The notes under the pieces: generated by a model
What the model saw: only the letters and a program-made list of their open reading frames with translations
What the model was told of the DNA's origin: nothing
Databases searched by the model: none
Assembly (NCBI GenBank): GCA_042566505.1
Contig: JBHPKP010000010.1
Coordinates: forward strand, 1 to 36,878
DNA length: 36,878 nucleotides
Direction of reading: 5' to 3'
Source of the DNA: a bacterium
GTDB taxonomy: Bacteria; RUG730; JBDRED01; JBHPKP01
Position numbers and translations under genes: made by a program
Part shown: positions 27,820 to 31,466 of the stretch, one piece after another
How the letters are laid out: every line of letters begins with the position of its first letter
Numbering within the stretch: position 1 is the first letter of the stretch

Positions 27820-28359
27820 CTATTTATTTTTTATAGTTATGGTGTAGTATCCACCAGCTTTTCTACTGCCTTTACGCTCAATTAGATTTAACTCTATTAA
27901 TGCATTTATTTGTCGTTCTATCGTCGCAAGTGACCTATCATTGAACTTTGTTGATAAGTCTTTCGCTTTTATTCCGGGATTATCAGATATAGTTTTATAC
28001 AATGTTTTTAATCCCTCATTTAATCCCTCAGAAGTAGACGCTTTCGTTTTATATAAAGTAACTACAAAATTAGAACCGATTTCTTCATATGCTGGTTCCG
28101 GTAGTTCAGCATCTTTTATTAAAGTATTTATTTTTTGTATTCCGGATCCCCAACGTTCTACATATCCCGTAAAATACAGCATTTCAGCAATAGCCGGATT
28201 ACGCAGTACAGATTTATGTTTTTTATTTAAATCTTTAAGTCTAATACCGTCAGGAAGTCTTCCAGGTGACCATATTTCAACACGATCATCGAAGACAGCT
28301 ATGTCTATATGCCCAGAAATCATATAATCTCTATGAATAACAGCATTGACGATTGGTAT
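27820..28359 (-). pseudogene. C-terminal half (HATPase_c_4-like plus wHTH) of an AlbA_2-domain Schlafen-like putative regulator, separated from its N-terminal half by a mobile element
   Basis: Begins ...IVNAVIHRDY, the conserved motif joining the AlbA_2 and HATPase_c_4 domains. Continues ...VEIWSPGRLP..., WGSGIQKI, and a C-terminal wHTH. The track ORF starts at a TTG at 28377, which lies inside the element. Confidence 0.7.
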
Positions 28360-29968
28360 ACAATTGGTAATTTTCAATATTTTGCTCCTTGTAACTATTA
28401 GTAATAGGTATACAATGTTTAATAGTAATTCCTTCTGGAGATACGAGCACTTCCTTCACAATAAGACGCAATATTTTTTGACGTTCTTCTAAATTCAAAT
28501 TATTTGCTGATTGACCTAAATTCTTTAAAAATCCTTCAAGATTATCAGCAAAATCTAATTGTTGCTGCTGATTTAAAAATTTCATCTCCAAAGACTCCAA
28601 CTCTACTTTTAATGTTGTTTCTCTTTTCCTTAAATCCGGCATCCTCTCACGCAACTCAGACAATGGAAGCAAATCTTCTTGATATGCATCAAGCAATTTG
28701 TCCATGCCTTTCTTAATTCGAATTTGTTCTTTGATAAGCTTATCTTTGCGAATTTGAATTGGCGCTGTCTCCTGTGCTCTTTTAGCTTTTTTATTAATTT
28801 CTGCTCGAACTATTTCAGGATTCTCTAAAAGCTTCATCACTTCACTCCATACTAATTCATCCAAATAATCTTGCCGAATAGGACGATTTGAGCAAACCTT
28901 CTCTACACCCATCCTCCAACGTTCTGAACGCGAACAACGATAATAATGTAGCTTCTCTCCTTTCCTATTATACTTAGGTCCTGACACACGGTATATTGCA
29001 TAACCACATGACTCACAAACCAAAAGACCCTGCAATAGTGTATTAATTTTTGTATTACGTGTAGAAAAATGCTTATTCTTTGATAAGCGTTCTCGAGCTA
29101 ATTCAAATGTTTCTTTAGAAATGATTGGCAATACAGGCACAGATATCCACTCACTTTCAGGTCTTTCACGAGTCAAGTATCCTTTTGCAGGTTTTCCTCT
29201 CCAACGATTCCTTTTAGACTTAACATCCCTTATGCTTTCATGTCTTCCAAATGCTGCTTGGCCTTTATACGCGGGATTTTTTAATAGCTGGGCAACTGTC
29301 CGTGGCAACCATTTCCCTTTTCCTGTACTTGTACTAACTCCCTCTTGATTTAGCCATCTCGCAATACCTAATATTGATTTTCCTTCCTCACTATATGCTT
29401 CGAATACTCGACGTACCACTTCTGCTTGTTCTTCTACTATTTCATATGATGCATTATTATATTCCGTCTTTTTGTTATAACGATATCCATATGGAGCACG
29501 ACTAAGAACATTCACATTCCCCATTTTTGCCTGATGTTTCTTCCCTCTTCGGCTTCGTTCTACTATTTGCGCTCGTTCATATTCTGCTATCATACCTTGA
29601 AACTGCAGCAATAATTCCTCTTCAGGCGTATTTGCCTTTGGCGATTTTATAAATATTATTTCTGCTCCTGCTCGATTAAATTCTTCTATTAATAATACTT
29701 GATATGCATATTTCCGACTTAATCTATCTGGAGAATATATCAATACTTTCTCTATTTGACCTTCACTTGTTAAATCTCTCAATCTTTCTAGTCCTGGTCG
29801 GTTTAAATATGCTCCACTATATCCATCATCTTTAAAATACCATTCATCAGGAATTTTGTAACCTTGCTCAGATGCATATTCTTTTAATGCGTTTACTTGA
29901 CTATCTATTGTATGATCTTCCTTTTGACGATCAGATGATACCCGCGTATATATCGCTGCTAATTTCAA
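28331..29968 (-). CDS. Large serine recombinase (resolvase/invertase catalytic domain, recombinase domain, zinc ribbon and coiled coil)
   Basis: N-terminal AAIYTRVSSDRQ (catalytic Ser), the zinc ribbon CESCGYAIYRVSGP...YYRCS, and a C-terminal coiled-coil region. The 545-aa length is typical of phage-integrase and transposon-type serine recombinases. Confidence 0.9.
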   Translation of the reverse strand: MKLAAIYTRVSSDRQKEDHTIDSQVNALKEYASEQGYKIPDEWYFKDDGYSGAYLNRPGLERLRDLTSEGQIEKVLIYSPDRLSRKYAYQVLLIEEFNRAGAEIIFIKSPKANTPEEELLLQFQGMIAEYERAQIVERSRRGKKHQAKMGNVNVLSRAPYGYRYNKKTEYNNASYEIVEEQAEVVRRVFEAYSEEGKSILGIARWLNQEGVSTSTGKGKWLPRTVAQLLKNPAYKGQAAFGRHESIRDVKSKRNRWRGKPAKGYLTRERPESEWISVPVLPIISKETFELARERLSKNKHFSTRNTKINTLLQGLLVCESCGYAIYRVSGPKYNRKGEKLHYYRCSRSERWRMGVEKVCSNRPIRQDYLDELVWSEVMKLLENPEIVRAEINKKAKRAQETAPIQIRKDKLIKEQIRIKKGMDKLLDAYQEDLLPLSELRERMPDLRKRETTLKVELESLEMKFLNQQQQLDFADNLEGFLKNLGQSANNLNLEERQKILRLIVKEVLVSPEGITIKHCIPITNSYKEQNIENYQLYTNRQCCYS

Positions 29969-30626
29969 CTTCTTTTACCTCATAAATTTTTTCTGTTACT
30001 TTCGTCTTTTCTTTCATATCACTCTTTACTTTCCTAAACAATATATCATAAACCTGTTCCATTTTTTGTTTTCCCAAGCGATCAAACTCGTATTTACAAC
30101 ATACTTGTCTTTCTCTTGTTTTATTTCCCATTCTCTTTTATGTAACCTTTTAGTGCTTCGGTTACTATATAACTTATATTTATTTTCATCTTCCTGCTTA
30201 ATCCCCGAACCACCTTTATTAAACTTATTGGCAATTTGATTATTACTGCTTCTTTCTCCTCCGGAATTTCCATTGCTTGTCCTCTTATCAAAGCCTCTTG
30301 TACATAACGATATGCTTGCGGTCTCGATATCCCATACTCTTCTCTCATCATTTCGATTGCCTTCTGACTTGACGCAAATTCCTTCAACAACTTCAGCGCT
30401 GTGTTGATTCGTTTTACTTTTTCGATTTCTGTACTTCGTCCTTTCATAATTCATATTTATATATATTTTTGTGAACATGTCAACTAAAATCCTTTTTTTA
30501 TTTTATTACTTTCATCCACTTTCGATAACTTAATTTTTTGGAATTCCTCGTATCTTCGTCGTTCTCTTATTCTCCAGTCTTCTGGAAAGTTACAAATTCG
30601 ATCAAATTCAAATTTACCTATTGTAT
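28359..30626 (-). mobile_element. ~2.27 kb insertion element carrying a large serine recombinase plus a small DNA-binding protein, inserted into the AlbA_2 gene
   Basis: Both junctions carry the palindrome GTATAC, at 28356-28361 and 30623-30628. Joining the flanks at the central TA restores an uninterrupted frame, AIRETISNTICIPIVNAVIHRDY. The ends have imperfect terminal inverted repeats TACAATWGGTAAWTTTSAAT. GC content is visibly higher than in the flanks. Confidence 0.7.
30121..30447 (-). CDS. Small HTH/ribbon-helix-helix-like DNA-binding protein encoded upstream of the recombinase
   Basis: ISRPQAYRYVQEA is helix-turn-helix-like. The C-terminal VIIKLPISLIKVVRGLSRKMKINISYIVTEALKGYI is CopG/RHH-like. 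An overlapping 150-aa ORF in another frame is low-complexity and was disfavoured. Confidence 0.5.
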   Translation of the reverse strand: MKGRSTEIEKVKRINTALKLLKEFASSQKAIEMMREEYGISRPQAYRYVQEALIRGQAMEIPEEKEAVIIKLPISLIKVVRGLSRKMKINISYIVTEALKGYIKENGK

Positions 30627-31466
30627 ACATATCGTGTTACTGATTGTTTCTCGGATAGCTAATAGAGGCCATTCATAAACAGGTTCTCGTTGAGCTGTTT
30701 TTGGATTAATAATGTATTTTTTTCGAAAATGATCGATGAAGAATTCTTGAACAGAAGCTATTTGTTCAAAAATATTTGTTTTAAAATCAGCATATACTGA
30801 TATTGGACTTGATTTATCTTTCCCTTCAAAAATAGCACATTTAACTAAAGCTTCTGGTATATAATGTTGTATATCTTTTCCAAAACATAGAAGACCAGCA
30901 ATATTTAGTTTATTTCCTGTGAATAAATTCAGTTTATTTAAAATATCTTTTTGTTTGTCTTTTTTATGATTAGGGAGACTTCTTTCGTATTTAGCTTTCT
31001 TTAAAAACCAGTTTATCGTTTTGCGATCTAAAGCCCCTTTGTATCCATTTATAATTGTTTTCTCATAACGATATTTAGGATTATCTCTTTCATAAAGGAA
31101 CTTTTCAACTTCATAGCGAGAAAGATACATATTGCTGGTTCCAACTCGCTTAAAAGCTTTTCCCCTACAAAAGTAAGGTTTGCCAGGTCCATTTTTTATT
31201 TCTATAACTAAAAGACTTTTTCCATTTATTGTATCTTCGTAAATGTTTGGATATACCCTAGGTTCAATAGAAGATAAAATCATTGTTGATATTTTTTGGA
31301 TTGTTTTATCAGAAACATCTTGACCGACAATTTTGCCAGTATCATTTATACCAAAATATAAAGTACCTTCACCATTATTTGCAAAAGCACAGATGTCTTC
31401 TAGTGCTGATTTTATTTCAGCTGTTGATTTTTTAAATTCTATTTTTTGTGTTTCTTTTAATTTCAT
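30618..31466 (-). pseudogene. N-terminal (AlbA_2 domain) half of the disrupted Schlafen-like putative regulator
   Basis: FKKSTAEIKSALEDICAFANNGEGTLYFGINDTGKIVG is the AlbA_2 signature. The ORF ends ...AIRETISN and then runs into element sequence (TICIQ, stop). Confidence 0.7.

Follow-up and report, generated by a model that had tools for sequence, protein, structure and literature searches.

An insertion-sequence-sized element that probably transposes by means of a large serine recombinase into a conserved Asn codon, and its relatives in group II introns

Large serine recombinases (LSRs) of the serine integrase type (phiC31, Bxb1, A118 and SPbeta SprA) combine resolvase, recombinase and zinc ribbon domains and act on an attP attachment site, a ~50-bp imperfect palindrome centred on a 2-bp crossover, without target duplication; many LSRs target conserved sites within coding sequences (Durrant et al. 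2022, PMC10083194). Here we describe an element of 2291 bp that interrupts a Schlafen-like AlbA_2/HATPase_c_4 gene in a bacterial contig of 36,878 nucleotides (JBHPKP010000010.1, assembly GCA_042566505.1); the whole of this 36.9-kb stretch is referred to as the window. The evidence makes it very probable that this is an integrated, insertion sequence (IS)-sized element with an LSR as its transposase, which crosses over at an AA dinucleotide in an Asn codon and moves by conservative site-specific recombination in a cycle of excision and reinsertion. The window element is similar to the serine integrases with respect to the domain set, the attP palindrome, the absence of a target duplication and the conserved coding target. 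Unlike them, it measures 2.3 kb without cargo, is not a phage or an integrative and conjugative element, has relatives that are present in multiple copies, and has its attP inside the recombinase frame.

Transposons that use an LSR as transposase, excise as a circle and reinsert at joint-like sites are represented by Tn4451/Tn4453 (TnpX) and Tn5397 (TndX). In Tn4451 the circle junction creates a promoter, which changes recombinase expression. These transposons are 6-20 kb, carry cargo and have a GA core, whereas the element described here has no cargo and an AA core (AT in a sister clade); its circle junction would complete an open reading frame (ORF) and not a promoter, and its targets are specific codons of conserved motifs. 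The TnpX/TndX elements fall within a DUF4368-bearing LSR clade that is multi-targeting (PMC10083194), whereas DUF4368 is absent from the window LSR in a Pfam scan. The IS607 family is likewise IS-sized, uses a serine recombinase and makes no target duplication, but its TnpA has ~200 aa, an N-terminal DNA-binding domain and almost no target specificity (PMC6188088, PMC4058570); in contrast, the window element has a 545-aa enzyme with the LSR domain order and no tnpB, and scores below the cut-off of the NCBIfam IS607 model (54 bits against 110, in the catalytic domain only). The closest published analogy for an attachment site within a recombinase reading frame is provided by the SSV-type "suicidal" integrases, in which att lies inside the integrase frame and integration splits the gene (PMC7253208, PMC8371274). 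Those are tyrosine enzymes that are cut in two, whereas here a serine enzyme has only its last 18-51 codons detached and remains catalytically complete.

The skin (SpoIVCA) and fdxN (XisF) elements are also LSR elements that interrupt a coding sequence with exact restoration possible on excision, but they are tens of kb long, lineage-fixed and developmental, whereas the present element is minimal and patchy in its distribution and belongs to a multi-copy selfish family. Against the CcrB and CcrC recombinases of staphylococcal cassette chromosome (SCC) elements, the window LSR lies far below the equivalog cut-off (143 and 111 bits, respectively, versus 900). With homing elements (inteins and homing-endonuclease introns) the present element shares insertion at the most conserved catalytic codons, so that a target exists in any new host; it differs from them in employing DNA site-specific recombination without splicing, with the host gene inactive while the element is present. 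LSRs with coding targets, serine transposons and tyrosine integrases with att in the gene are thus already known; new here are an IS-sized LSR transposon, homing at the level of a motif and a recombinase gene that spans att. We found no published description of the family in open-access and bioRxiv texts, ISfinder and TnCentral lying outside the scope of this search.

Positions below are those of the whole window in plus-strand numbering, and all genes of the locus lie on the minus strand. The element, the two parts of its host gene and the recombinase are arranged as follows:

28346..30638, minus strand: integrated element with both copies of the crossover dinucleotide; net insertion 2291 bp
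30639..31466, minus strand: N-terminal part of the host gene, Schlafen-like AlbA_2, ending ...LLAIRETIS-(N) (Pfam SLFN_AlbA_2, 8.8e-27)
27820..28345, minus strand: C-terminal part of the host gene, HATPase_c_4 and winged helix-turn-helix, starting (N)AVIHRDY... (Pfam HATPase_c_4, 5.9e-27, and orthologue alignment)
28331..29968, minus strand: large serine recombinase, 545 aa (Pfam Resolvase 5.7e-37, Recombinase 1.9e-21, Zn_ribbon_recom 5e-12)

An earlier note, made from the sequence alone, had described a split AlbA_2/HATPase_c_4 gene and, between its halves, a very compact LSR-centred element with a small helix-turn-helix/ribbon-helix-helix protein, possibly a 66-aa ORF, terminal inverted repeats and a GC content above that of the flanks. 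All of these points hold. Pfam domains are found on both gene halves (within ORFs annotated at 30618..31466 and 27820..28377, both on the minus strand) and the three LSR domains on the 545-aa protein, the two small ORFs are open and conserved across the family, and GC is 34.7% in the element versus 30.4% and 31.3% in the flanks. What the note missed is that the recombinase ORF crosses the attachment site, that a 48-aa ORF (orf48) represents a fourth coding segment, and that the element belongs to a large multi-copy family. The element proper (28348-30638) consists of the LSR, orf108, orf66 and an end segment containing orf48, with no cargo genes; it falls within the operational size and content of an insertion sequence (below ~2.5 kb, functions for its own movement only). 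Over their full length, the two host-gene halves share 63-70% identity with intact orthologues, and neither has secondary lesions.

The crossover lies at AA on the gene strand, which corresponds to the plus-strand TT at 28346-47 and 30637-38. Read on the gene strand, attL has the sequence ...ATCAGT-AA-CACGATATGTATAC... and attR the sequence ...GTATACCAATCGTC-AA-TGCTGTT...; the AA dinucleotide, identical in both and asymmetric, is all that they have in common. Deletion of 2291 bp at AA yields a 451-aa gene reading ...RETISNAVIHRDY..., which is gap-free against its orthologues in both protein and DNA, and the earlier proposal of a conservative insertion without target-site duplication, from which the original gene can be exactly reconstructed, is therefore borne out. 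The restored empty site gives the predicted attB, 5'-CTATCCGAGAAACAATCAGTAATGCTGTTATTCATAGAGATTAT, and the circle junction the predicted attP, 5'-AAATTACCAATTGTATACCAATCGTCAACACGATATGTATACAATAGGTAAATT. The latter, reconstructed as AAATTACCAATTGTATACCAATCGTC-AA-CACGATATGTATACAATAGGTAAATT, is an imperfect palindrome of ~54 bp with its dyad centre at AA, the arms of which are located as follows:

28348..28373, strand not assigned: attP arm at the 3' end of the recombinase gene; on the gene strand AAATTACCAATTGTATACCAATCGTC followed by the AA core; includes the left GTATAC (28356-61)
30611..30636, strand not assigned: attP arm at the opposite end; on the gene strand the AA core followed by CACGATATGTATACAATAGGTAAATT; includes the right GTATAC (30623-28)

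The arms account for the terminal inverted repeats, which match at 21/26 positions adjoining the core (chance ~3e-8) and extend to 48 nt at 73%, and in 90 non-redundant elements arm conservation is symmetric over 26 nt per arm. A generic search for 40-nt inverted repeats was unsuccessful for two relatives (L001 and L002) and was replaced by a 26-nt palindrome search anchored on CAA/TTG. An alternative crossover at GT inside ATCGTC was rejected, as the resulting attP lacks dyad symmetry.

The earlier note had placed the crossover within the hexamer GTATAC. The hexamer is indeed present near each junction, but the crossover is elsewhere, 8 bp beyond each copy; its central dinucleotide is AT and not TA as the note had it, and the net insertion of 2291 bp replaces the estimate of ~2267 bp. 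Joining the gene halves at GTATAC (a 2267-bp deletion) does give an ORF of 459 aa with a single stop, since the hexamers are symmetric about the true crossover and the two joins differ by 24 bp; however, this join adds the residues NTICIPIV. A search with the GTATAC-joined protein retrieved intact homologues (the closest 63-70% identical), and all 54 that were aligned read ...LLAIREAVA-NAIAHRDY..., without the additional residues. The DNA of three uninterrupted orthologues (L166, L167 and L168) contains no GTATAC anywhere, an outcome that had been named in advance as telling against the hexamer as target site, and aligns gap-free to the product of the 2291-bp deletion; their codons at the site are ...TCA AAC GCT..., ...GCG AAT GCC... 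and ...TCG AAT GCT..., respectively. In L002, from an Elusimicrobia metagenome-assembled genome (MAG), TGTAC takes the place of the hexamer; a join there is out of frame, whereas one at AA keeps the frame and gives REAIVNAVAHRDY.

The hexamer belongs to the element and not to the target, since it occupies a fixed and symmetric place inside both conserved arms in all clades (with variants such as GTACGC and GAACGC). On this comparative evidence the GTATAC copies appear to be mirror-image half-site motifs for the recombinase, 8 bp either side of the core. The hexamer alone is not unusual, with 11 copies observed in the window versus 12.5 expected. The note had also pointed to an internal copy of the junction sequence, which exists (GTATAC at 28408-13) but lies within coding sequence:

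28408..28417, strand not assigned: internal GGTATACAAT copy; encodes H-C-I-P, part of the conserved recombinase strand ITIKH(C/S)IP

Relatives encode H-(C/S)-I-P with other codons (CAT TGT ATT CCA, CAC TGT ATC CCA, CAC TCG ATT CCA), and the DNA is not conserved among them; the internal GGTATACAAT copy is therefore a coding coincidence and not a site.

Elements with LSRs 66-79% identical to that of the window are present in L001 (Omnitrophota), L002, L161/L162, L163, L164 and L165, where L161 (a 33-kb contig) and L162 (16.5 kb) are one locus from two groundwater sample assemblies (ERZ1292621/ERZ1292622). The loci of this AlbA clade were retrieved individually, a metagenome scan having given, among the matches listed, only the clade that inserts into reverse transcriptase (RT) genes described below. 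Loci that retain the two flanks are ordered AlbA_2 half, small ORFs, LSR and HATPase_c_4 half. In the motif RE(A)(V)x-N-A(V/I)xH(R/K)DY, which we take to be the Asn box of a GHKL-type ATPase, the AA core falls within the Asn codon, and the element is always co-directional with the host gene. At least seven independent insertions are at this same Asn codon (window, L002, L161/162, L163, L164, L165 and L001). The interrupted genes are distant paralogues in unrelated phyla; that of L002, the sole case compared directly, is only 26-44% identical to that of the window. The core is AA on both sides with the exception of L001 (AT/AA), and the orientation is fixed. In close LSR homologues (P0003-P0013), back-translation by hand showed that the host-derived tails decode, one frame over, to NA(I/V/L)xHRD(Y/F), with P0008 diverging. 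Truncated AlbA_2 homologues in the database were considered as further insertions and rejected, as they represent contig ends. In L166, the region ~600 bp upstream of the intact AlbA_2/HATPase_c_4 orthologue (L166:1-925) encodes another, different LSR of 509 aa, alongside an ORF of 70 aa and an HTH_3 gene, and RadC and a type I methylase are encoded downstream, a defence or mobile-island context.

The search for the recombinase in other genomes that the earlier note proposed uncovered a large family. LSR homologues number in the thousands, the best 120 being 54-79% identical and mostly located on contigs of 2.0-4 kb, approximately the size of the element; counting one genome per species among GTDB representatives, there are at least 591 family loci. 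These occur in Omnitrophota, Elusimicrobia, Desulfobacterota, Nitrospirota, Acidobacteriota, Verrucomicrobiota, Planctomycetota, Gemmatimonadota, Actinomycetota, Binatia and the Alpha-, Beta- and Gammaproteobacteria, and none was found in 2.9 million viral contigs. For 122 elements, which measure 2179-2310 bp, the two ends could be pinpointed, and all share the arrangement core(2)-8 nt-NNAYRCAA... together with its mirror image. Members of the family, labelled only as "recombinase family protein", are also carried on finished plasmids from cultured bacteria (Mesorhizobium, Rhizobium, Bradyrhizobium, Streptomyces and Rhodococcus); on Mesorhizobium pMspAR02c and Rhodococcus pRZP1 the RefSeq annotation reads RT domain protein, CopG-family ribbon-helix-helix, recombinase and group II intron maturase domain protein.

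The members of the sister clade are mostly inserted in the RT genes of group II introns. Among 107 non-redundant insertions with usable flanks, 73 split the RT motif G-T-P-Q-G-G-x / x-S-P-L-L-A-N, 41 in one orientation and 32 in the other. In Rfam searches, the interrupted RT genes are preceded by group II intron domains 1-4 and followed by domains 5/6, and the target that is free of an insertion in L045 encodes an RVT_1 protein in which the maturase domain is weak. A further 31 insertions mostly have RT half-sites from different copies, and, judged from the flanks, would reflect either rearrangements between element copies or assembly chimeras. In several RT-clade elements the same RT target half occurs on both sides in inverted orientation: in L062, L108, L057, L159 and L095 the two flanks stem from distinct RT copies, suggestive of deletion or inversion between copies of the element; in L083, L134, L111 and L154 they are perfect inverted copies, suggestive of assembly chimeras; and in L118 and L003 the inverted flanks are only ~75-80% identical. 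Nine elements of RT-clade type (L028, L038, L017, L025, L026, L058, L069, L130 and L158) have flanks with neither the RT nor the AlbA motif and may represent off-target insertions or further target classes.

The RT-clade core corresponds to the first two bases of an Ile, Val, Leu or Ala codon, and is AT, GT, CT or GC in one orientation and the reverse complement (AT, AC, AG or GC) in the other. The commonest pair of flanking cores is AT/AT (39 cases), and AT is palindromic. The fixed orientation of the AlbA clade follows from the asymmetry of its AA core, whereas in the RT clade AT-type cores are found with insertions of either orientation. Of the 107 insertions, 67 have the same dinucleotide on the two sides, 36 have flanking dinucleotides with a one-base difference and 4 have dinucleotides that share neither base, in contrast to canonical integrases, which need identical cores; we know of no canonical serine integrase that tolerates a core mismatch. 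The filled site of L043 is flanked by CT to the left and AT to the right, where the empty site has AT, and sister copies are flanked by CT and CT (L045) and by AT and CT (L046). Such mixed cores are consistent with heteroduplex segregation after a 2-nt staggered exchange between partners with a one-base mismatch.

The mobility of relatives is directly apparent in seven long-read genomes, each of which has 2-4 copies that are 99.5-99.96% identical over 2227-2285 bp and have unrelated flanks, and in an empty copy (L045:3479) of the site that is filled in L043, the flanks of which are 100% identical over 1.9 kb. A contig of 2247 bp from a Chromatiaceae MAG (L044, JACDZG010000276.1), with a stated coverage of 1341x, is exactly one element from core to core; this element is at very high copy or extrachromosomal in the sample. 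In the proposed cycle, the LSR would synapse attL and attR, cut at AA with a 2-nt stagger, rotate and religate, freeing a 2291-bp circle and restoring the host gene exactly; the circle would then reinsert at the same motif in another gene of the host-gene family.

The LSR comprises a Resolvase domain (PF00239, residues 4-151), a Recombinase domain (PF07508) and a Zn_ribbon_recom domain (PF13408), with no further Pfam domains. Residues R9, S11, S12 and Q15 are invariant in 26 homologues, as are C318, C321, C345 and C359, and residues 11-510 align to SPbeta SprA/YokA (9dxh). In LSRs a coiled-coil motif inserted in the zinc ribbon controls directionality; in the window LSR, residues ~385-500 are helix-prone as judged by sequence. 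No exact database match to the window LSR is on record. The element encodes residues 1-540; host DNA supplies the 5 final codons and the stop (28331-28345). The opposite end of the element carries the segment that would continue this frame:

30484..30636, minus strand: coding segment at the far end of the element, in frame with the LSR in the circle; orf48 starts from its own ATG at 30630

Joining of the ends in a circle would extend the LSR in frame (...NYQLYTNRQ-HDMYTIGKFEFDRICNFPEDWRIRERRRYEEF...), from 540 to 591 aa. The LSR-continuous frame past attP is stop-free for at least 18 codons in 90/90 non-redundant elements, versus 24/90 and 2/90 for the other frames; an F.F.R motif occurs in the extension of 81/90, and an own in-frame start codon within its first 8 codons in only 10/90. 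Beyond the 26-nt arm, conservation is observed on the extension end only, and has a 3-nt periodicity with degenerate third positions in the LSR frame. By comparison, the LSR tails in integrated elements are arbitrary, from 1 to ~600 codons. The open frame and the third-position pattern, set against these arbitrary tails, indicate coding selection on the extension, in a reading frame that only joined ends make complete. Integration would then alter the C-terminus of the enzyme, which would exist as a 540-aa form with a junk tail when integrated and as a 591-aa form with a conserved peptide in the circle, and the two isoforms may differ in the reaction they favour and so help to set its direction.

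A 19-nt direct repeat (84%) at 30079-30097 and 30599-30617, GTAAAT(AC/TT)GA(G/A)TTTGATCG, specifies the peptide YEFDR in orf66 and the peptide FEFDR in the end segment, each within a conserved family motif (E-Y-x-F-D-R-L and N-F-x-F-x-R, respectively). These may be paralogous peptides or a repeated DNA site.

Several observations weigh against parts of this interpretation. The element is single-copy in the 36.9-kb window, and neither a circular junction nor an empty site was seen from the window's own population. A contiguous attP, as expected from a circle or tandem junction, was found neither among 165 loci nor, with two degenerate patterns, in IMG/VR. None of 120 homologous proteins has a circle-type tail, and the window orf48, having its own ATG, could be a separate peptide here. 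The putative roles of the C-terminal extension, orf108 and orf66 are proposed from their conservation; the AlphaFold model of orf108 is of low confidence (predicted local distance difference test score, pLDDT, 61), and Foldseek found no significant structural match for it in the PDB, with nothing below E = 0.3. In a promoter and terminator scan, promoter-like sites were fewer than in shuffled sequence and no convincing promoter was identified. In the course of the search for a second copy, the other 545-aa ORF of the window (7433..9070) was considered and rejected as an unrelated protein.

The absence of an observed excised form and the single copy in the window are what would be expected of an immobile relic, left by a single past insertion in a host gene that is now a pseudogene, and the recombinase of the window copy ends in 5 host codons and not in the conserved extension. 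We regard this as unlikely, because the LSR is full length with all invariant residues, the three small ORFs are open and conserved, the arms are intact at 21/26 positions, equal to those of active-looking relatives, and the host halves are free of secondary lesions. The same features (invariant LSR residues, relative-like arms, open small ORFs and undamaged host halves) make the window copy look recent or still mobile. The undamaged halves, aligning over their full length, could also be read as those of a gene that the host turns on by excising a domesticated intervening element, in the manner of skin/SpoIVCA at sigK or the fdxN element with XisF. Precise restoration on excision, the constant co-direction of element and gene in the AlbA clade, and the resemblance of the target family to Argonaute-associated defence modules would all fit such a switch. 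It is nonetheless improbable to a greater degree than the relic: the closest orthologues are uninterrupted and the interrupted genes are distant paralogues in unrelated phyla, the sister clades behave selfishly (multiple copies, both orientations in group II introns, rearrangements), the XisF score is 120 against a 375-bit cut-off, and the asymmetric AA core alone explains the fixed orientation.

A crossover inside GTATAC, with an element of ~2267 bp and an original gene reading ...RETISNTICIPIVNAVIHRDY..., draws on the hexamers near both junctions and the open 459-aa frame, but has very little probability left in view of the 54 aligned orthologues without NTICIPIV, the three orthologue genes without GTATAC, the out-of-frame TGTAC join in L002 and the fixed, symmetric position of the hexamer in the arms of all clades; moreover, its palindromic AT centre could not fix the single orientation of the clade. 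Slighter still is the chance of an assembly artefact, in which two loci were mis-joined through a repeated recombinase gene. This is a MAG contig, the family breaks assemblies (many homologues are on 2.0-2.6-kb contigs), some relatives have chimeric flanks, and an odd ileS/mutS junction occurs in the same window. Against this, the flanks here are two halves of one gene that fit to the base, the same architecture is present in the two sample assemblies of L161 and L162 and in four other metagenomes, and the sister-clade architecture is found in finished plasmids. Transposition of an IS-sized element by its LSR, with crossover at AA, thus accounts best for the locus. A broader proposal is considerably more tentative, namely that the family is a class of IS-sized "homing" LSR transposons in which clades have been retargeted to the codons of catalytic motifs (RT PQGG-x-SPLL in group II introns, and the Asn box in AlbA_2/HATPase_c_4 genes), attP lies in the recombinase ORF, an isoform switch, in place of or jointly with a classical directionality factor, sets excision versus integration, and a one-base core mismatch is tolerated.

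The remaining coding segments of the element lie between the recombinase start and the far end:

29931..30131, minus strand: orf66, overlapping the recombinase start; motif E-Y-x-F-D-R-L..K..Q-V-Y..L-V-P, conserved across the family
30121..30447, minus strand: orf108, helix-turn-helix (RQAYRY) and ribbon-helix-helix-like; homologue in every element examined

An ORF of 50-90 aa (~60) with conserved sequence is found at the orf66 position in every element examined. The orf108 product is helical in its N-terminal part, which includes S-RQAYRY, and ribbon-helix-helix-like in its C-terminal part; it has homologues in 189 representative clusters among 1.84 billion proteins, nearly all of 100-120 aa, and those on finished plasmids are annotated in RefSeq as "ribbon-helix-helix protein, CopG family". 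Neither orf66 nor orf108 has a match in Pfam or NCBIfam, and orf108 also has none in PADLOC. The two proteins presumably act as a regulator and/or directionality factor. An ORF of 150 aa in another frame (30026-30478, minus strand) covers the whole of orf108, and nearly all members of the family have a comparable open frame of 130-190 aa; it is probably a by-product of the purine-rich coding strand. A TTGACA-16-TATAAA sequence upstream of orf108, spotted by eye as a candidate promoter, is unsupported by the promoter scan.

In PADLOC searches the reconstructed 451-aa host protein matches prokaryotic Argonaute (1.3e-20, residues 18-385) and Argonaute-associated SIR2-PNTD proteins (2.9e-18), and on this similarity the interrupted gene may be defence-related. 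Directly downstream of it, a 93-aa ORF (27530-27811, minus strand) without a Pfam or PADLOC match could encode a partner of the AlbA_2 protein. Further downstream, at 25653-27520, an N-terminal fragment of ileS (plus strand, ~209 residues, class I tRNA synthetase) lies tail-to-tail with an N-terminal fragment of mutS (minus strand, domains I-III, ~393 residues), both without their C-terminal halves; the break near 26280-26341 reflects a deletion or rearrangement, or a mis-join in the MAG. An Rfam scan of the window gave no matches.

Taken at the strength set out above, the family would represent an overlooked class of mobile DNA that occurs in at least a dozen phyla, is carried on plasmids of cultured rhizobia and actinomycetes, and fragments assemblies. 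Most of its members lie within the RT gene of group II introns and are, in this respect, parasites of a parasite. The sister clades, with enzymes ~55% identical and unrelated targets that are recognised via 8-10 bp next to the core, represent a case of natural retargeting, and the family offers dozens of compact LSR/attP/attB sets for study and for genome engineering. Two mechanistic oddities stand out, a recombinase C-terminus that would depend on the integrated versus circular state and an apparent tolerance of core mismatch. For the host of the window copy, the consequence is that a Schlafen-like ATPase gene with similarity to Argonaute modules is switched off, possibly reversibly.

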